Shown here in pieces: positions 4,192 to 64,000 of a stretch of DNA of 64,000 bases. Origin of the DNA: Candidatus Daviesbacteria bacterium. GTDB taxonomy: Bacteria > Patescibacteriota > Microgenomatia > Daviesbacterales > UBA10151. The notes under the pieces were generated by a model. That model was not told where the DNA came from, did no database searches, and saw only the letters and a program-made list of their open reading frames with translations. A program made the position numbers and the translations under genes. The stretch lies in contig JAUYKM010000009.1 of NCBI GenBank assembly GCA_030699125.1, positions 6,358-70,357 of the forward strand, in the 5' to 3' direction. Each line of letters begins with the position of its first letter. Position 1 is the first letter of the stretch.

Positions 4192-5562
4192 TTAATCTAT
4201 ATGCTGAATTTTTTCAAGTAAATAATCTCTCTTATTCTTTGTAGAATCTTCTAAGACTTCCTCAAAAAGTTTTTGGAGGATCTCTCCCACTTTTGGGCCG
4301 GGCTTAATGTTTAAAACTTTCATCACATCATGGCCATCCACTTTTAAATCAGCAATGGAAAATGGTTTTTTCAAAACTTGTTTAATTTTTTCTTTAAATT
4401 TTTCCATCCTCCATGATGTTTCTCTCTGTGTTCCTCCACCTAATCTATCACCAACTCGAAGAGCCATCATATCTTCGATATTTTCCAACCTCACATTTTT
4501 TATAAAACGCCTGATGGCAGAATCTGTTTGATCTTCATTAACAGAAAACATATGCCACCTGATTAATCTATAGAGCTTTTCAGTTTGTTTTTTAGATAGA
4601 TTAAATCTTTTGGCAATCTTCCTAGCTATATTTGCGCCCACCACATCATGTTGATAGAATGTGACATTGCCATCCTCTTGAGTGGAGACTGTATCAGGTT
4701 TACCAACATCATGGAGCAAGGCGGCAAATTTGGTAAGAGGATCATCTGATGGAGCATATTTGAGAGTAAGTAGGGAGTGTTCGCCAATATCATAGACTCT
4801 GTCATGTTTTGGTCCCTCCTGTTTAAGACCAAAACACCCCTCAAGTTCCGGCAAAATAATTTGCAGTATCCCCGCCTCCCTAAGTTTAACTATACCTATG
4901 TATGAACTGCTAGATGCAAGAATCTTGAAAAGTTCATCCCTGACTCTTTCATTGGCGATTTCTTTTAAAAGATGGGCATTTTTTGTGATAGCTGCAAAAG
5001 TTTTTTTCTCTATATCAAAACCCAATTCTGTGGCAAATCGAATGGCACGAATAAGACGTAGGGCATCTTCTTGGAACCTTTTCTGTGGATCACCCACAGC
5101 TCTAATGATTTTGTCTTTAATATCATCTTGACCATGGAATGGATCAGTTAATTGGATCCCCCGATTAAATCGGGGGATGACAGAGGCGGCAATGGCATTA
5201 ATAGTAAAATCCCTGCGAGCTAAATCTTCCTCAATATTATCTGTCCAGGAAAGCTTATCCGGATGACGGTGATCTTTATATATTCCCTCTTTTCTCATGG
5301 TGGTGATTTCAAAAATTCCATCACCACTATCAAACCCAACTGTACCAAACTTATTATCATAAAATCCCTCAGGAATCACTTTTAAAATCTCCTCCGGTTT
5401 TGCATCAGTGGTAAAATCCCAGTCCTTGACCTGCTTTTTCGTTAAAAGATCTCGGACTGCCCCTCCCACTATGTAAATTTGAAAGTTGGCTTTTTGAAAT
5501 TTATCTAAAATATTTTTTACTCTGGAAGGTAGTGTATAATCGTTCATGATTTCATCATTCAC
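4192..5562 (-). CDS. cca: CCA tRNA nucleotidyltransferase (polymerase beta-type head plus HD domain)
   Basis: IVGGAVRDLLTKK..DWDFTT nucleotidyltransferase head, RRDFTINA motif and a downstream HD-domain LHDVGKP. Confidence 0.85.
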   Translation of the reverse strand: MNDEIMNDYTLPSRVKNILDKFQKANFQIYIVGGAVRDLLTKKQVKDWDFTTDAKPEEILKVIPEGFYDNKFGTVGFDSGDGIFEITTMRKEGIYKDHRHPDKLSWTDNIEEDLARRDFTINAIAASVIPRFNRGIQLTDPFHGQDDIKDKIIRAVGDPQKRFQEDALRLIRAIRFATELGFDIEKKTFAAITKNAHLLKEIANERVRDELFKILASSSSYIGIVKLREAGILQIILPELEGCFGLKQEGPKHDRVYDIGEHSLLTLKYAPSDDPLTKFAALLHDVGKPDTVSTQEDGNVTFYQHDVVGANIARKIAKRFNLSKKQTEKLYRLIRWHMFSVNEDQTDSAIRRFIKNVRLENIEDMMALRVGDRLGGGTQRETSWRMEKFKEKIKQVLKKPFSIADLKVDGHDVMKVLNIKPGPKVGEILQKLFEEVLEDSTKNKRDYLLEKIQHID

Positions 5563-16551: not shown

Positions 16552-17409
16552 ATGTCAATTACTGCCCAAGATATTCATAAATTAGAAGAGAAGGCCGTTT
16601 TAATCCGGGAGGATATCATCAGGATGCTTCTGGAAGCTGGATCAGGTCATAGCGCCGGACCTTTAGGCATGGCTGATGTTTTCACTGCTTTATATTTTAA
16701 TATCTTAAAACATGACTCGGCCAAGCCGGATTGGGAGGAGCGGGATATGCTGGTATTATCCAACGGCCATATTTGTCCGGTTTGGTATGCCACCCTGGCT
16801 CACGCCGGTTATTTCCCTATTACGGAACTAAAAACATTGAGAAAGCTGGGTACTAGGCTGCAAGGACATCCTCACAGAGGGGCTTTACCTGGAGTAGAAA
16901 CAACTTCAGGTCCTCTCGGCAGTGGATTATCTCAAGCTTGCGGAATGGCTCTGGGACTGAGGATGGATAACTCCAGAAGATGGGTTTATTGTTTAATGTC
17001 TGACGGAGAGCAGGATGCCGGAAATACCTGGGAAGCAGTTTTATTTGCAGGAAAATATAAACTAAATAATTTAACTGCCATTATGGATAGAAATAATATC
17101 CAAATAGATGGGTTTACAGAGGATATTATGCCTTTGGAACCGATTAAAGAAAAATATGAGGCCTTTGGCTGGCATGTTCTGGAAATAGACGGACACAATA
17201 TGGAGGCTATTATTAATGCCTGCAATGAAGCCAAAGCTATTGTGGAAAAGCCGGTTTTAATCATTGCCCACACCATCCCAGGTAAAGGAGTTGATTTTAT
17301 GGAATATAAATTTGAATGGCATGGTAAACCACCGAATGCAGAAGAGGCCAAAAAAGCTTTATCAGAGTTAAGAACCCTGCAAGGTAAGATTAGGAGCGAG
17401 CATGAGTGA
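16552..17409 (+). CDS. Transketolase, N-terminal (TPP-binding) subunit
   Basis: GSGHSAGPLGMADV, GHPHRG and MSDGEQDAGNTWEA motifs. Split-transketolase architecture. Confidence 0.85.
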   Translation: MSITAQDIHKLEEKAVLIREDIIRMLLEAGSGHSAGPLGMADVFTALYFNILKHDSAKPDWEERDMLVLSNGHICPVWYATLAHAGYFPITELKTLRKLGTRLQGHPHRGALPGVETTSGPLGSGLSQACGMALGLRMDNSRRWVYCLMSDGEQDAGNTWEAVLFAGKYKLNNLTAIMDRNNIQIDGFTEDIMPLEPIKEKYEAFGWHVLEIDGHNMEAIINACNEAKAIVEKPVLIIAHTIPGKGVDFMEYKFEWHGKPPNAEEAKKALSELRTLQGKIRSEHE

Positions 17410-23867: not shown

Positions 23868-26165
23868 TTGCATCTAAATATGGCAGAAATAAAGAAAACA
23901 TTTCCCATAAAGGGTATGTACTGTGCATCATGTGTACGGGTTTTGGAGAAATCCTTAAGTAGAGTTGAGGGTATTTCTAATTGTGTAGTAAATCTGACAA
24001 CAGAGACAGCAAGTGTTACATATGATCCAAAAAAAGTGACAGATAATGATTTGGTATCTGCTGTGGCGAATGTTGGCTACAAAGCAGGGTTGGAGAGTGA
24101 GTTAAAAACAGAAGATCAGCAAAAAATAGAGAAGGAAAAAGAACTAAAAGATTTACGAAATAAAGTTATTATCAGTTTATTTTTGGGGGCATTAATTCTT
24201 TGGGGAAGCTTTCCGGGTCTTATGAATATTGCCCCACTTTTTTTAATAAACTCATGGGTACAACTGCTTTTAGCGATACCGGTTCAATTTTGGGCAGGCT
24301 GGGAATTTTACAGGGCTACAATTCCTGCCCTGCGACACAGAACTGCCAATATGGACACACTGGTGGCCATAGGTACTACCGTTGCTTTTTCCTATTCCGC
24401 TGTCGTGACTATTTTTCCTCAACTGGTGGAAAGTATTGGAGTAAAACCAGAGCCCTACTTTGATGTTTCCACTATTATTATCGGATTAATTTTACTAGGA
24501 AGATATTTTGAAGCCAAAGCTAAAGCAGGTACTTCAGAGGCTATTAAAAAGTTAATAGGTCTGCAGGCTAAAACTGCCAGGGTGGTAAGGAATGGCTCGG
24601 AAGTAGATATCCCGATAGATCAGGTAGTGATTGGAGATACTATCAGGGTCAGGCCAGGTGAAAAAATTTCGGTTGACGGAGAAATTTTAGAGGGTCAGTC
24701 ATCTATTGATGAGTCCATGGTAACAGGAGAAAGTATCCCGGTTGATAAGGTTAAAGGCGATTTGGTAATTGGTGCCACTATCAACAAAACAGGAACCTTT
24801 TTATATAAAGCCACCAAAGTGGGAGCAGATACAATGCTTTCACAAATTATTAAATTGGTACAAGAGGCTCAAGCCAGCAAAGCCCCGATACAAAGATTGG
24901 CTGATTTAATTTCTTCATATTTTGTACCGGTAGTTTTAATTTTGGCCATTGCTACATTTGTAGTTTGGTATGTAATTGGTCCTGCCCCTTCATTTTTGTA
25001 TGGTTTGCTTAATATGGTGGCTGTTTTAATAATTGCCTGTCCTTGTGCCATGGGCTTGGCAACTCCAACAGCTATTATGGTGGGTACAGGAATTGGGGCG
25101 AACAAAGGAATATTGATTAAGGATGCTCAAAGTTTGGAAACTGCTCATAAAATAAACACTGTTATTTTTGATAAAACAGGGACATTAACTAAGGGAAAGC
25201 CGGAGGTGACCGACGTTGTTCCATTCGTCATTGCGAGGAGGAACGCGACGAAGCAATCTTCCAAATCAAGATTGCCACGCGAACTAAAGTTCGCTCGCAA
25301 TGATGTTTTGGTATTAGCAGCATCTTTGGAAAAGGGATCAGAACATTCTTTAGCAGAGGCAATTGTTAATAAAGCCGAGCAAGAAGCACTTAACTTCAGC
25401 AAAGTCGAAGCATTTAAAGCCATTCCAGGGCATGGGGTAGAAGGTATTGTTGATGGGAGAAAAGTGGTTCTGGGAAATAGAAAGTTGCTGGAAAAGAATG
25501 ATGTTGACTTTACTCCGATTATTCGAATAATTGAACAACTGGAAAATGAAGGCAAGACAGTGATGATGTTGACCGTGGATGGGAAATTAGCAGGCCTTAT
25601 TGCTGTGGCTGATACTATTAAAGAGACTGCCAAAGAAGGAGTGGAAGCGCTCTATAAAAAAGGGATAGAGGTAGTTATGATTACCGGAGACAACCAGAGA
25701 ACTGCCAATGCTATTGCTAAAAAGCTGGGTATAAAAAGAGTTTTGGCAGAAGTTTTGCCTGATCAAAAAGAGGCGGAAGTAAAAAAGATTCAGACAGAAG
25801 GAAAGAAAGTAGCTATGGTGGGAGATGGAATAAATGATGCTCCGGCTTTGGCTGCTGCAGATGTTGGGATTGCCATGGGTACTGGAACTGATGTGGCCAT
25901 AGAGTCGGCAGGAATTACCTTGATAAATAAAGATTTAACATCTGTGGTATCAGCAATAGAGCTTTCCAAAAAAACCATGAGAACAATAAAACTAAACCTT
26001 TTTTGGGCTTTTGGTTATAATATTATATTAATACCGGTTGCTATGGGAGCGCTCTATCCATTTTTCCATATACTTTTAAATCCAATCTTTGCTTCAGTTG
26101 CTATGGCATCCAGTTCTATATCTGTAGTTTCAAATTCACTGCTTTTAAAAAGGGTTAAACTATGA
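23868..26165 (+). CDS. copA: Copper-translocating P1B-type ATPase
   Basis: N-terminal [16 protein letters not shown] motif [18 protein letters not shown] and [10 protein letters not shown]. Carries a 78-bp in-frame GC-rich palindromic insertion at 25227-25304. Confidence 0.9.
25227..25304 (+). repeat. Two inverted copies of palindromic mini-element family A inserted in frame in copA
   Basis: GTCATTGCGAGGAGGAACGCGACGAAGCAATC and, inverted, GATTGCCACGCGAACTAAAGTTCGCTCGCAATGAT. Matches 55996-56028 and 56173-56198. Confidence 0.7.
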
Positions 26166-49618: not shown

Positions 49619-49737
49619 AAATACCTGCTGATTTATATGTTAAAATCTTCTCGTGGATTCTAAAAAAGGATTAATGATTATATCTATTGATGAAGAGAAG
49701 AGGAAGATAACGGTTGTTTGAGCCTTAAGAAAACCAA

Positions 49738-50508
49738 ATATCCGCAGGTGTCAATACAGATACACCCCAAGGGTGTACATACAATATAAACTTTACTCCT
49801 CCTCCAACAACTGATGTTTTATTAGTTCTAACTTTTGGGCGTATTCCACACGTTCAAGAACAAATTCCTTATAATCTTCGGGGGATTTAAAAAAATTTAG
49901 GATTTCTTCTTTAGCGCAAAAGCCATCTTTTACCAGTCCAACATATTCCGGATATGAAGACCAACGATAATCTTTTAAATCCTTCACTAGAAGTGATGCA
50001 ATCGGGTTTAAGTGAATATAACGTGAGACATGAATTAACTGTTCATCAGATTCAATTAAAACAGCTTTGAATTCCCCCTGTAATAAAGGCCCAACTCTTC
50101 TGTACTTAACATTGTAGTATTTGGTATAGCTATTGCTAAGTTTACTGATAAATTCAGTAATTCCGCCATCTTTAAGTTGTCTAATAAGAAGATGGAAATG
50201 GTTTGGCATTAGACAATAGCAGATAATGTCCACGATTTTTTTGTTTGAATCGGGTTTAATAATAGAATTTGGTGAGAATCTGGAGAATCTTGGCTTGGGT
50301 CCTAATAATTGGTAATAGGTGATCGTCTTAATAAATCTTGAATAATCCCAATTTTTTTCAAATATTCTTCTTTTCTCTACACCTCGGTTATAAATATGGT
50401 AAAAATGACCGTTAACAAATGGAAAAATTCTGGAAGGCATTTGAACCTATCGTACTCTCAATATCCGCAGGTGTCAATACAAAAACACCCCAAGGGTGTA
50501 CATACAAT
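49738..50508 (-). mobile_element. IS200/IS605-like element: a Y1 transposase flanked by 48-bp near-identical direct subterminal repeats carrying a GTACACCC-AA-GGGTGTAC hairpin
   Basis: Repeats at 49738-49785 and 50461-50508 differ at 3 positions. Same-strand hairpins at both ends fit the IS200/IS605 LE/RE architecture. Confidence 0.6.
49793..50440 (-). CDS. Y1 HUH tyrosine transposase (IS200/IS605 TnpA or RAYT-like)
   Basis: HUH motif NHFHLLI and catalytic Tyr in YIHLNP. Paralog of the 34562..35236 gene. Confidence 0.7.
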   Translation of the reverse strand: MPSRIFPFVNGHFYHIYNRGVEKRRIFEKNWDYSRFIKTITYYQLLGPKPRFSRFSPNSIIKPDSNKKIVDIICYCLMPNHFHLLIRQLKDGGITEFISKLSNSYTKYYNVKYRRVGPLLQGEFKAVLIESDEQLIHVSRYIHLNPIASLLVKDLKDYRWSSYPEYVGLVKDGFCAKEEILNFFKSPEDYKEFVLERVEYAQKLELIKHQLLEEE

Positions 50509-55662: not shown

Positions 55663-56031
55663 ATGGGTGAGCGTTTGCATGATTTTTATCAACAACCAGA
55701 ATATCGGGCATATATGTTAAGGGATGAAAGATTTTTCACAGGTGAGGTTGGGTCAGTAGATCTTGAAGGATTAGATTTGAGAAGTCCTTGGGAAAAAGAT
55801 TGGGAGGAATATAACAAGCCAGTAAGACAGTCGGTAGAAGAATTGTTGGATGATGGGCAAGATTTGATGACTATGACTGAAGCAGAAGTTGATCAAGTTT
55901 ATGAGCAAGTCTTAGCTAGAAGATTAGAAATTGGTCATAGACTCTTTCCTTTTGCAAGTCCAGAAGATTTAGGAAGAAGAGCTACTACTCCTGGTGTCAT
56001 TGCGAGGAACTTTAGTTCCGAAGCAATCTAG
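55663..56031 (+). CDS. Hypothetical protein whose C-terminal 12 codons and stop are supplied by a palindromic mini-element
   Basis: The ...GVIARNFSSEAI* tail is encoded by the family-A element at 55996-56031. Confidence 0.4.
   Translation: MGERLHDFYQQPEYRAYMLRDERFFTGEVGSVDLEGLDLRSPWEKDWEEYNKPVRQSVEELLDDGQDLMTMTEAEVDQVYEQVLARRLEIGHRLFPFASPEDLGRRATTPGVIARNFSSEAI
55996..56028 (+). repeat. Palindromic mini-element family A (GTCATTGCGAG-GAACTTTAGTTC-CGAAGCAATC)
   Basis: Inner perfect palindrome GGAACTTTAGTTCC, outer ATTGC/GCAAT arms. Copies at 25227-25304 and 56173-56198. Confidence 0.65.
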
Positions 56032-56047
56032 AGCCTATTTCAAAACT

Positions 56048-56119
56048 GTCATTCCCGCGTATGCGGGAATCCAATTAACAGATTTTATTAAATGGATCCC
56101 TGCCTTCGCAGGGATGACA
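56048..56119 (+). mobile_element. Cargo-less MITE-like element: two family-B hairpins in inverted orientation (GTCATTCCCGCGTATGCGGGAATCCAATTAA ... GGATCCCTGCCTTCGCAGGGATGAC)
   Basis: Same terminal inverted repeats as those flanking the GIY-YIG gene at 63108-63463. Confidence 0.55.
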
Positions 56120-56172
56120 AAAGAGGTTTTGAAATGACTCCTAGATAATGGAGTGATATATTACATGAAATA

Positions 56173-56198
56173 GATTGCTTCGCTACGCTCGCAATGAC
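56173..56198 (-). repeat. Family A palindromic element, inverted copy
   Basis: GATTGCTTCGCTACGCTCGCAATGAC, just downstream of the response-regulator stop. Confidence 0.55.
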
Positions 56199-58186: not shown

Positions 58187-58260
58187 GGCGCCATCGTCTA
58201 GTGGTCCAGGACATCAGGTTCTCATCCTGAAAATCGCGGGTTCAAGTCCCGCTGGCGCCG
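58187..58260 (+). tRNA. tRNA-Glu (anticodon CUC)
   Basis: Folded by hand. Acceptor GGCGCCA/TGGCGCC, GTCTAGTGGTCCAGGAC D-arm typical of tRNA-Glu, anticodon stem TCAGG/CCTGA, loop TTCTCAT, T-stem GCGGG/CCCGC. No encoded CCA. Confidence 0.85.
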
Positions 58261-61605: not shown

Positions 61606-63081
61606 ATGGCTTTGGAGAATTTACAAAAGGAAAGAATTAAGAAGTTAAGAAATATTAAGCGTTTGGGGATAAATCCGTATCCTGCTAAATCCAACCGCAA
61701 GCATACTATTTCCATTGCCCGGAAAATGATGGGTAAGAAAGTGGCTGTGGCCGGAAGGATTAGATCTTTAAGACCTCATGGCAAGATTACCTTTGCCGAC
61801 ATTGAAGATGCCTCAGGCAAAATCCAACTGCTTTTTAGACAAGATTCGTTAAAAGGCGAGAAATATGATTTTTTGTCGAATTTGGATCTTGGGGATTTTA
61901 TTGAATGTGGTGGGGAAATTATTAAGACTCAAGCTGGAGAGATTACGGTTGATATTGATAATTTTTCTCTTCTGAGTAAGTCTTTACGTCCCCTTCCTTC
62001 TTCCTGGTATGGACTAAAAGATGTTGAGGAAAGATACCGCAGAAGGTATGTAGACATGATTATGAATCCTGAGGTCCCCGGTATTTTGGAAAAAAGATCA
62101 AAAATTATTGCCGCCATCCGTGATTTCTTAATTAATAAAAAAAGTTACATAGAAGTTGAATCTCCTGTTTTGCAGCCAATTTACGGTGGGACTCGCGCCC
62201 GTCCTTTTAAAACTCATCACAACAGCCTAGATACTACCTTTTATTTAAGAATATCCAACGAACTTTATTTAAAAAGGTTAATTGTGGGGGGATTTGAGAA
62301 AGTTTTTGAAATTGGACATACCTTTAGAAATGAAGGGATGGATCGGATGCACAATCCGGAATTTACAATGCTCGAAACCATGGAAGCTTATGCGGATTAT
62401 ATGGATAATATGAATTTAATTGAAGAGATGTTTGAGTATGTGGCAAGAGAGGTTTTTAGAACAACTAAGTTAAACTATCAGGGAAAAAGTTTGGAATTTA
62501 AAAGGCCCTGGATTAGAGTCACTTTGACTGATTTGTTTAAAAAATATACCGGCGTTCATTTCTCTGAAATAGATACTTTGGAAAAAGCCACCTCCTTAGC
62601 TAAAAAATTAGGAGTGGAAATAAAGGATTATATGACTGATGGGGAAATCTTACTGGAAATATTTGAAAAAAAATGTACTGATCAGTTAATCCAACCGACA
62701 TTTATTTATGATTATCCGGCAGATTTTTATCCTTTGGCCAAAAGAAAGGAAGATAATTCAAAGTTGGTAGAGAGCTTTGATATATATGTGGCTGGGATGG
62801 AAATGGGAACTAATTATTCTGAGCAGAATGACCCTGAGGAATTAAGGAAAGCTTGGTTGGCAGAGAAAAAGAAAGCCAAAAAGGGCAATCCGGAAGCACA
62901 AAAACTGGATGAGGATTTTTTGCAGGCTTTAGAATATGGTATGCCGCCAACTTCCGGTATTGGTCCGGGGATAGATAGATGGATAATGGTCATGACAGAT
63001 TCTCCCACAATTTATGATGTGATAGCATTTCCTATGCTAAAACCCGAAAAGAAACCGCTTAGAATAAAGGTAAAAAATTAA
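61606..63081 (+). CDS. lysS: Lysine--tRNA ligase, class II
   Basis: N-terminal OB anticodon-binding domain and class II motifs (FRNEGMDRMHNPEFTMLE, GGIGIDR). Confidence 0.9.
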   Translation: MALENLQKERIKKLRNIKRLGINPYPAKSNRKHTISIARKMMGKKVAVAGRIRSLRPHGKITFADIEDASGKIQLLFRQDSLKGEKYDFLSNLDLGDFIECGGEIIKTQAGEITVDIDNFSLLSKSLRPLPSSWYGLKDVEERYRRRYVDMIMNPEVPGILEKRSKIIAAIRDFLINKKSYIEVESPVLQPIYGGTRARPFKTHHNSLDTTFYLRISNELYLKRLIVGGFEKVFEIGHTFRNEGMDRMHNPEFTMLETMEAYADYMDNMNLIEEMFEYVAREVFRTTKLNYQGKSLEFKRPWIRVTLTDLFKKYTGVHFSEIDTLEKATSLAKKLGVEIKDYMTDGEILLEIFEKKCTDQLIQPTFIYDYPADFYPLAKRKEDNSKLVESFDIYVAGMEMGTNYSEQNDPEELRKAWLAEKKKAKKGNPEAQKLDEDFLQALEYGMPPTSGIGPGIDRWIMVMTDSPTIYDVIAFPMLKPEKKPLRIKVKN

Positions 63082-63107
63082 TGACTAAGGATGAAGCATA
63101 TAAATTA

Positions 63108-63463
63108 ATTAGATTATGTCATTCCTGCGAATGCAGGAATCCAATTAACAGATGTATTATTATGTCTATATTTTGGCAAGTGGAATAAATGGCACTTTGT
63201 ATATAGGTGTTACAGATAATTTAGTCAGAAGGGTTTGGGAACATAAACATGATTTGGTAGAAGGATTTACCAAAAAGTACGATATACATGATCTTGTATA
63301 TTATGGGCAACACCAAGACATTAATGAGGCCATTTTAAGAGAAAAACAAATGAAGAAGTGGAAAAGATATTGGAAAATAAAACTGATTAATAAGATGAAT
63401 CCAAAATGGAAAGATTTATATATTTCTATTGTTTAATTGGATCCCCGCCTACGCGGGGATGAC
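63108..63463 (+). mobile_element. 356-bp element with terminal inverted repeats carrying a GIY-YIG nuclease gene as cargo
   Basis: Left end GTCATTCCTGCGAATGCAGGAATCCAATTAA. Right end TTAATTGGATCCCCGCCTACGCGGGGATGAC. Each end is itself a hairpin. A cargo-less copy lies at 56048-56119. Confidence 0.55.
63152..63436 (+). CDS. GIY-YIG nuclease family protein (YhbQ/UPF0213-like)
   Basis: YYVYILASGINGTLYIGVTDNLVRRVWEHK is a GIY-YIG core. 94 aa. Confidence 0.75.
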   Translation: MYYYVYILASGINGTLYIGVTDNLVRRVWEHKHDLVEGFTKKYDIHDLVYYGQHQDINEAILREKQMKKWKRYWKIKLINKMNPKWKDLYISIV

Positions 63464-63469
63464 AGAAAT

Positions 63470-64000
63470 ATGAAGATTAATGATCTTAAAAAGATTTTAA
63501 AGGTATTTCTTACCTTGCAATGGGCCAAGGAGTTGCCCAGGCAGGGATTTATTGCCATGGGGTTTAAAAGAAATGAGGCGGATTCTGTGGCTGCCCATTC
63601 TTTTTCCACTGCCCTCCTAGCTTATTTTTTGGCCAAACAACTACAAAAAGAAGGAAAAAAAATAGATGCAGATAAAGTTCTAAAAATGGGACTTGTTCAC
63701 GATATTGGAGAAACAATAGTGGGGGATGTGGGCACTTTTGTTAAAGGGATGGCAGGAGGAGTATTTAAAAATATAGAAGAAGAGGGGGTAAAAGCTTTAG
63801 TGGATGAATTAGATTCCAAGGATGAGATTATCTCTTTAGTTTCAGAATATAACAGCAGAAAAACTTTAGAGGCAAGGGTGGTTAAGGTTGCAGATAATCT
63901 GGATGCTTTGGCTCAAGCCAAAGGTGTACCTGGGGCAAAAGATGCGTTAAAATATTTTAAGGAGGTCTATCACATTACCCGCTTTGACTGGCACAAAAGG
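63470..64000 (+). CDS. HD-domain phosphohydrolase (YfbR-like 5'-deoxynucleotidase), 3' end beyond the window
   Basis: AAHSFSTALLAYFLA...VHDIGETIVGD H..HD motif. Open to the window end, so not in the ORF track. Confidence 0.6.
   Translation, partial: MKINDLKKILKVFLTLQWAKELPRQGFIAMGFKRNEADSVAAHSFSTALLAYFLAKQLQKEGKKIDADKVLKMGLVHDIGETIVGDVGTFVKGMAGGVFKNIEEEGVKALVDELDSKDEIISLVSEYNSRKTLEARVVKVADNLDALAQAKGVPGAKDALKYFKEVYHITRFDWHKR

Follow-up and report, generated by a model that had tools for sequence, protein, structure and literature searches.

Within a 64-kb stretch of one Candidatus Daviesbacteria genome (hereafter the window; relatives were compared as loci labelled L001 and onward), a small GIY-YIG nuclease gene, here called ssn, is enclosed by two short hairpin-forming arms in inverted orientation. 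The left arm (LE) occupies positions 63118..63148 on the plus strand (31 nt, GTCATTCCTGCGAATGCAGGAATCCAATTAA) and is made up of GTC, an 8-bp hairpin (ATTCCTGC/GCAGGAAT) with the loop GAAT, a C, and a subterminal CAATTAA. The ssn gene follows at 63152..63436 on the plus strand and encodes a 94-aa single-domain protein that we assign below to the Ssn family; its ATG lies 3 nt downstream of the end of LE, and its TAA stop falls within the right arm (RE), which occupies 63433..63463 on the minus strand (31 nt; GTCATCCCCGCGTAGGCGGGGATCCAATTAA in the minus-strand reading and TTAATTGGATCCCCGCCTACGCGGGGATGAC on the plus strand). RE is laid out like LE except that its stem begins with ATCCC, not ATTCC, and the two arms are 80% complementary across 35 nt. 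An earlier note on this DNA had described a 94-aa GIY-YIG open reading frame (ORF) between inverted hairpin arms, and both the arrangement and the sequences quoted were found in the window as written; the element was said to start at 63108, which is 10 nt too far left.

Folded as single-stranded DNA (ssDNA), every arm forms an 8-bp stem with a 4-nt loop (z = -3.6 to -4.4). The arm pattern GTCATYCCNGCNNNNGCNGGRATCC has exactly four matches in the 64 kb, in the ssn arms and in the arms of a gene-less doublet, in comparison to 0.01 expected from shuffles, and the differences between copies are compensatory (TTCCTGC/GCAGGAA versus TTCCCGC/GCGGGAA; CCCCGC/GCGGGG versus CCCTGC/GCAGGG). No known RNA family in Rfam was matched by the element. 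Because the gap between LE and the ATG leaves no room for a promoter, and a co-directional ORF (as predicted) ends just upstream of LE in 8 of 10 contexts in which ssn was seen, there is a hint that ssn may be expressed by read-through from the upstream ORF.

The Ssn family was defined by Chenal et al. (2025, Nat Commun; PMC11893778) as site-specific single-stranded-DNA nucleases with a single GIY-YIG domain (cd10448), and the SsnA protein of N. meningitidis is 94 aa long. According to the same study, Ssn binds the hairpin repeat NTS (CGTCATTCCCGCGMAVGCGGGAATCYRG) solely as ssDNA and cuts the bound strand a few nucleotides 5' of a conserved (C/T)GTCAT, is inactive on double-stranded DNA (dsDNA), RNA and the reverse strand, and depends most on the GTC before the palindrome for cutting and on the C after the palindrome for binding (PMC11893778). 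The window protein matched the Pfam GIY-YIG domain (PF01541, E=5e-12, residues 2-75), with no second domain found, and did not match the HUH-type family Y1_Tnp. It has about 8000 homologues, and among the matches listed most are 93-95 aa in length. A tblastn search of the N. gonorrhoeae chromosome recovered the SsnA orthologue with E=8e-25 and a coverage of 100%, and a BLASTP comparison of the two proteins showed 48/94 identical residues (51%) without gaps at E=1e-35, below the threshold of E < 1e-10 used for Ssn homology in PMC11893778. In this gap-free alignment the catalytic residues Y6, Y17 and E64, for which mutants were made in PMC11893778, are all kept with the same numbering. The gonococcal protein stands in here as the orthologue of N. 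meningitidis SsnA, being 94 aa long, the sole match in its genome, and NTS-flanked; its locus was taken from L143 (NZ_CP119140.1), a 2.17-Mb N. gonorrhoeae chromosome that is listed as 'plasmid' in PLSDB, which is a database error. A sequence search of PDB returned no relative of the window protein, and no entry identical to it turned up in a contig index.

The arms show the corresponding features of the substrate. They hold GTC, ATTCCCGCG..GCGGGAAT and C, the positions critical for cutting and binding in PMC11893778, and NTS-like hairpins (GTC, the palindrome ATTCCC..GGGAAT, and C) lie directly on both sides of ssn, as well as being dispersed elsewhere, as in the Neisseria Ssn/NTS system. The stem start ATTCC of LE resembles the Neisseria NTS, and LE of the doublet (56048) matches the NTS core GTCATTCCCGCG...GCGGGAATC at 21/21 positions and departs from the full NTS consensus at 4/28, the mismatches affecting position 1, the loop and the 3' end. 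LE of the ssn unit is thus predicted to be a hairpin of the NTS/SRM type in plus-strand orientation, the orientation that Ssn enzymes recognise. In the published survey SRMs were close to ssn in 71% of homologues and on both sides in 42%, and its discussion calls the NTS-ssnA-NTS architecture 'identical to' insertion sequences (IS), with parallels drawn to IS200/IS605 and to repetitive extragenic palindromes and the mosaics built from them (REP/BIME) (PMC11893778). The view that no element with this architecture had been described does not hold, given the published family; judged by its sequence, the locus is of a kind already described, and the window copy is a further Ssn/SRM member, in a bacterium of the Candidate Phyla Radiation (CPR).

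The gene-less doublet lies at 56048..56118 on the plus strand (71 nt; LE 56048-56078, RE 56086-56118) and folds with z = -6.2. It had been noticed earlier as an empty pair at 56048-56119 with the same two ends 25 nt apart; the pair and its ends are real, and the hairpin cores are 21 nt apart, close to the spacing claimed. Near-identical doublets occur in unrelated flanks at L112, L136 and L142. In the window the doublet is the inner part of a composite palindromic unit of 121 nt (56028..56148, plus strand; z = -7.2), in which it is framed by outer inverted arms of 20-25 nt (CTAGAGCCTATTTCAAAAC / GTTTTGAAATGACTCCTAG); the composite shares 92% identity with L142 over exactly 121 nt while the flanks are unrelated, and a search for the outer arms without the inner doublet gave nothing convincing. 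The 121-nt unit is in turn enclosed by a pair of hairpin repeats of a second type (GTCATTGCGAG...GAAGCAATC; 55996..56198, with arms at 55996-56028 on the plus and 56173-56198 on the minus strand), and positions 55996-56198 therefore form a nested mosaic of the second-type pair, the 121-nt unit and the ssn-type doublet. No second ssn gene that could serve the second repeat type was found in the window by tblastn. The first second-type arm also provides the final 11 codons and the stop of an ORF at 55663-56031 (122 aa), for which the homologue search returned only the ORF itself and no Pfam domain was found; the ORF may be spurious.

When metagenomes were scanned for the LE sequence, 57 loci were obtained, from groundwater metagenomes. 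With duplicates taken out and other loci added, 47 distinct LE...RE units with both flanks were available, comprising 36 doublets (67-113 nt), 9 gene-bearing units (331-376 nt) and 2 intermediate ones. Two homologues retrieved through the protein search (77-78% identity) stand in different gene contexts and have the same order LE (ATTCC)-ssn-RE (ATCCC), and the arms were tied to ssn in 10 independent contexts altogether. When six gene-bearing units were aligned, identity started exactly at (T/C)GTCAT and stopped at GATGAC while the flanks were unrelated, and every copy aligned has the stop codon of ssn embedded in RE. As had been proposed, ssn thus appears to act, together with the inverted hairpins at its two ends, as one sharp-ended unit.

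The arms themselves are conserved as hairpins across these copies. A single base pair of LE is left free by the pattern used in the search, and it is Watson-Crick in 48/48 distinct copies, with all four pair types represented; among 21 arms, of which the RE arms had been pre-selected by a hairpin filter, double changes were found at 4/8 stem pairs with 100% of cells paired. RE stems, likewise from arms chosen with a hairpin filter, are diverse (CCCCGC, CCCGTA, CCCGAC, CCCTGG, TCCCCT and others) and still form perfect 8-bp stems. Among 115 distinct arms, the base 5' of GTCAT is T in 84 and C in 29 and almost never a purine, and G is depleted at positions -8 to -4 before GTCAT, the region in which Ssn enzymes cut. 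The independent copies L001, L003, L095, L115, L122, L140 and L141 share the asymmetry of LE (ATTCC) and RE (ATCCC). The exception is L125, a frameshifted copy that has ATTCC at both ends; the Ssn enzyme may treat LE and RE differently. Target-site duplications (TSDs), which had been proposed for the window copy, were absent: for lengths up to 8 nt and offsets up to 6, the flank repeats of the 47 distinct units were no longer than those of a control with re-paired flanks.

Comparison of related genomes revealed occupied and unoccupied states of two sites. At the tktN/tktC junction (17402..17409, plus strand) the window is unoccupied, the tktN stop overlapping the tktC start (ATGAGTGA) with no hairpin present. 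At the same junction a doublet begins 4 nt past the tktN stop in L102 and L099, and a full LE-ssn-RE begins 5-7 nt past it in L003-L005 and L140; in L140, tktC is 82% and the element 85% identical to the window. The DNA between RE and tktC differs by relative (L003, L140, L102) and includes DinB_2, two unrelated small membrane ORFs and a DPPY-motif methyltransferase, and L099 and L102 part ways 15 nt beyond RE; the right side of the element at this junction looks like a cassette-exchange hotspot. At the site downstream of lysS, the element is present in the window and an intact HDIG-domain gene is present in L007 and L006. The left flank of the window element (63081..63117, plus strand) holds what appears to be a remnant of that gene, in the syntenic position after lysS: its first ~10 codons (MTKDEAYKLI, versus MNRQEAYKLM in a relative), with 23/29 nt identical to the HDIG start of L007, break off 7-8 nt before LE, and neither the remainder of the HDIG gene nor serS was found in the 64 kb. 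The lysS-based search of species genomes yielded three close relatives only, among which the synteny downstream of lysS is variable. The two comparisons indicate that the position of the ssn unit varies among related genomes, the locus filled in one being unoccupied in the other. In the closest lysS relative (L008, 3962-4013), part of the 5' end of serS is present a second time, within the lysS-serS spacer (ATGTTAGATATAAATCTT... before the real ATGTTAGACATTAATTTT...), apparently a further sign of an unstable lysS-downstream region in this lineage.

Taken together, we consider it probable, at roughly 0.8, that this locus represents an Ssn system of a Patescibacteria/CPR genome, in which ssn encodes an Ssn-family nuclease, the flanking arms are its cognate hairpins, and the unit is REPIN-like. 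The likeness to the Neisseria Ssn/NTS system of PMC11893778 lies in the 94-aa single-domain GIY-YIG protein with Y6/Y17/E64 and in the GTC-ATTCCCGCG...GCGGGAAT-C core. The two also differ in several respects. The window arms form clean terminal inverted repeats (TIRs) with GTCAT outermost, whereas at the gonococcal locus L143 GTCAT of the nearest upstream and downstream arms faces the gene; and, unlike in Neisseria, LE and RE are consistently different variants, gene-less doublets dominate, and the host is a CPR bacterium. Several points weigh against this interpretation. The published SRM string HGTCWYN(0-2)YYVSBRHN(0-5)WNVSBRGN(0-2)RNCYNB, which is a search heuristic from 29 genomes and not a functional definition, has 0 matches in the window; of the two arms checked by hand, LE 56048 departs from the string at the last position alone (A for B) and RE 56118 within the stem. 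The ratio of doublets to full units comes from an LE-seeded scan and is not a genome census. Neither site offers a clean empty counterpart, all but the start of the HDIG gene being lost at lysS and extra, differing genes lying between RE and tktC at the other, and recombination or cassette exchange at the hairpins therefore fits as well as transposition. Finally, DNA identity among the genomes compared is just 67-82%, which leaves the order of events without a confident assignment.

Hairpins of these types were also found in frame inside genes, unlike the situation in N. meningitidis, where 2% of NTS are intragenic (PMC11893778). A solitary ssn-type arm (GTCATCCCCCGATTTAATCGGGGGATCCAATTAAC) lies at 5152..5181 on the minus strand, in frame in the gene for the CCA-adding enzyme (cca, ORF 4192-5562, minus strand), where it encodes VIPRFNRGIQL and leaves cca intact at 456 aa. 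At this place, 91 of the 120 closest orthologues show a short loop without insert (ALSxDGKIVDPF), 11 have VIPxxxGIQL and 18 have other inserts, some of them from other palindromic repeats (KHLRGE...HLGGE), so the cca loop would appear to be a recurrent landing site for palindromic repeats. A doublet of the second type (25227..25304; arms 25227-25258 on the plus and 25270-25304 on the minus strand) is likewise in frame in a copper P-type ATPase gene (copA, ORF 23868-26165), directly after DKTGTLT, where the linker has 26 residues in comparison to typically 7 in 150 representative homologues. For annotation, this means that the repeats are the source of peptides such as VIPxxxGIQL and VIARR..KQS..ARND. 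Palindromic repeats of ~100-150 bp that lie in frame in coding genes are reported from Rickettsia (Rickettsia palindromic elements, RPE). The cca and copA inserts resemble these, by description, in adding a short peptide in frame in a tolerant loop, and differ in that RPE are longer; we know of no established link between RPE and a nuclease. Rickettsia is one of the genera for which over 300 SRMs are listed (PMC11893778). The doublet family, the LE/RE asymmetry, the allelic series at one junction and the in-frame copies are what the present analysis adds beyond the published Ssn work.

The explanation that survives best next to a mobile unit is a fully domesticated host system, in which Ssn would restrict incoming ssDNA and tune recombination, and the hairpins would be maintained by the host and arise and decay in place, the unit itself being immobile. 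Restriction of incoming ssDNA near hairpin sites, as proposed for N. meningitidis, is the sole function experimentally shown for the family (PMC11893778). The variable cassettes beside RE at the tkt junction resemble the NTS-flanked variable genes of Neisseria. Patescibacteria, moreover, rely on the uptake of DNA and possess competence genes, and ssDNA substrates are therefore available. Against an immobile unit stand its sharp ends and its varying position among related genomes, with the alternative locus unoccupied, the near-identical doublets and the 121-nt composite in unrelated flanks, and the in-frame copies within essential genes, which are hard to see as host-selected. Full domestication is thus a possible but rather doubtful account, and it is compatible with mobility; the two are not mutually exclusive.

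It is improbable that the order of events was that of gene capture, with the doublet ancestral and ssn inserted into one doublet. The 36 doublets against 9 gene-bearing units in the sample would agree with such an order. However, the final codons of ssn and the stop (TATTGTTTAA) survive in the L096 doublet, 44/45 nt being identical to window 63425-63468; the spacer of the window doublet keeps the LE-proximal CAGAT and the RE-proximal TTAAATGG (TTAA(A/T)TGG) in the form in which they border the ORF; LE of the L102 doublet is identical (32/32), and its RE nearly identical, to the arms of the L140 full unit at the same junction; and the stop codon of ssn lies within RE in all copies. Because L096 retains the 3' end of ssn, and because doublet and full unit share the tktN/tktC junction in different relatives, the gene-less doublets are best read as internal-deletion derivatives of full units, some of which keep 3' codons of ssn. 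The earlier description of the empty copy as a derivative of the kind called miniature inverted-repeat transposable element (MITE) is borne out as regards the deletion (L096, tktN/tktC) and fails in the strict sense: TIRs are present, as in classical DDE-derived MITEs, but there is no TSD, and the parent encodes a hydrolytic nuclease instead of a transposase, for which a REPIN is the better analogy.

A free-standing GIY-YIG homing endonuclease gene, which would cut an unoccupied double-stranded allele and be copied in by repair with the hairpins being incidental, is very improbable. The window protein shares the catalytic fold with homing endonucleases of the I-TevI type and is likewise tied to a spreading gene, and NCBIfam, which holds no model for the Ssn family, gave one sub-threshold match, to TIGR01453, a model of group I intron endonucleases (20 bits versus a cut-off of 56). 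Unlike those enzymes, which bind DNA through a separate domain, cleave unoccupied alleles as dsDNA and reside in introns or phages, the window protein has 94 aa without a DNA-binding domain and lies in neither an intron nor a phage, and the LE pattern had 0 matches in viral contigs. The characterised relatives leave dsDNA uncut and recognise a hairpin carried by the element itself (PMC11893778), and the arms are conserved with covariation; the label 'homing-endonuclease-like' given at first would accordingly have to be replaced by that of a putative single-domain nuclease directed to ssDNA hairpins, which is not a double-strand homing enzyme. That the arms are ordinary REP-type terminators or regulatory hairpins placed by chance on both sides of an unrelated small gene, which the earlier note had named as what would undo its reading if no cargo and empty pairs with matching junctions existed, is scarcely credible even though dispersed hairpin repeats do adjoin many unrelated genes, as a scan found no terminator-like site and there is no T-run at the arms, inverted arms could act at most one per transcript, arms also lie inside ORFs, and the association with ssn recurs in the 10 independent contexts here and in 71% of homologues in PMC11893778.

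Among known mobile systems the nearest likeness is to REP sequences with their associated tyrosine transposases (REP/RAYT) and to REPIN doublets, in which a single small nuclease gene is reportedly flanked by its own hairpin repeats. The ssn system shares with them the hairpin ends, the dispersal mainly as inverted doublets able to form a long hairpin (36 doublets in comparison to 9 full units), the lack of TSDs in 47 units, and the nested mosaic clusters; it is unlike them in that its enzyme is a hydrolytic GIY-YIG nuclease, while RAYT is an HUH Y1 transposase with a covalent intermediate. The IS200/IS605 elements (e.g., IS608) are similar in their ssDNA hairpin ends, small nuclease, cleavage at a short distance from the hairpin and lack of TSDs. 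Their ends are not inverted repeats, and both hairpins act on the same strand, so that a single-stranded circle can be excised and re-integrated by HUH chemistry. In contrast, the window unit has one recognised arm per strand and an enzyme that cannot rejoin DNA, and the combination of inverted arms and hydrolytic chemistry would exclude excision of a single-stranded circle as in IS608.

A mechanism that is consistent with these features can be outlined. Because the arms are inverted, each strand would carry one arm in the recognised orientation, and the cuts would fall just outside the unit, at ~63108-63115 on the plus strand and ~63466-63473 on the minus strand. As a GIY-YIG enzyme only hydrolyses DNA and there is one cleavable arm per strand, spread would most likely depend on the host, through its replication, repair or recombination at Ssn nicks in ssDNA such as that of replication forks or incoming transforming DNA. 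The ssn unit and the doublets may then act as a selfish or semi-domesticated repeat system of the RAYT/REPIN type, whose copies would be gained, lost or relocated among related genomes without TSDs, often at gene ends or in protein surface loops, and would accompany local rearrangement, as suggested by the truncated HDIG gene in the window and the differing cassettes beside RE at the tkt junction in relatives. The further step, that LE-ssn-RE is an autonomous mobile element of a new mechanistic class, in which the GIY-YIG enzyme nicks 5' of the hairpin on each strand and the host copies or relocates the unit and its doublets, is put forward tentatively, and we regard it as unlikely to hold in this full form. 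The pattern of presence and absence fits mobility, and the evidence is circumstantial: the earlier proposal of a mobile unit is borne out in the occupied and unoccupied states of the same site in related genomes, while transposition of Ssn units was demonstrated neither here nor in the Ssn literature covered.

Two further features of the window may be mentioned. An IS200-like Y1 (HUH) transposase or RAYT-like gene lies at 49793-50440 on the minus strand (Pfam Y1_Tnp, E=1.8e-7) and is flanked on both sides (window 49717-50508) by direct repeats (69 nt, 84% identity) in which the hairpin ACACCCCAAGGGTGT lies; a classical system of the REP/RAYT or IS200 type and the Ssn system thus coexist, as distinct systems, in the same 64 kb. 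A tRNA gene at 58187-58260 (Rfam RF00005, 66 bits), between a histidine kinase operon and the lysS region, is unrelated to the ssn unit.

The Ssn family was described only in 2025, and its role outside Neisseria and the mobility of NTS-ssn-NTS units are questions that this locus touches. It offers an unusually clean system, with perfect inverted ends, a large doublet family, and a series of none, doublet and full unit at one junction, and mobility is directly testable because the substrates (LE, RE, doublet) and the candidate target sites are defined. Hairpins of this kind can sit in frame in essential genes of reduced CPR genomes. If the tentative mobile-element proposal is true, LE-ssn-RE would be the GIY-YIG counterpart of the RAYT/REPIN and IS200/IS605 systems, and it would be capable of in-frame insertion into genes that are essential in streamlined CPR genomes.

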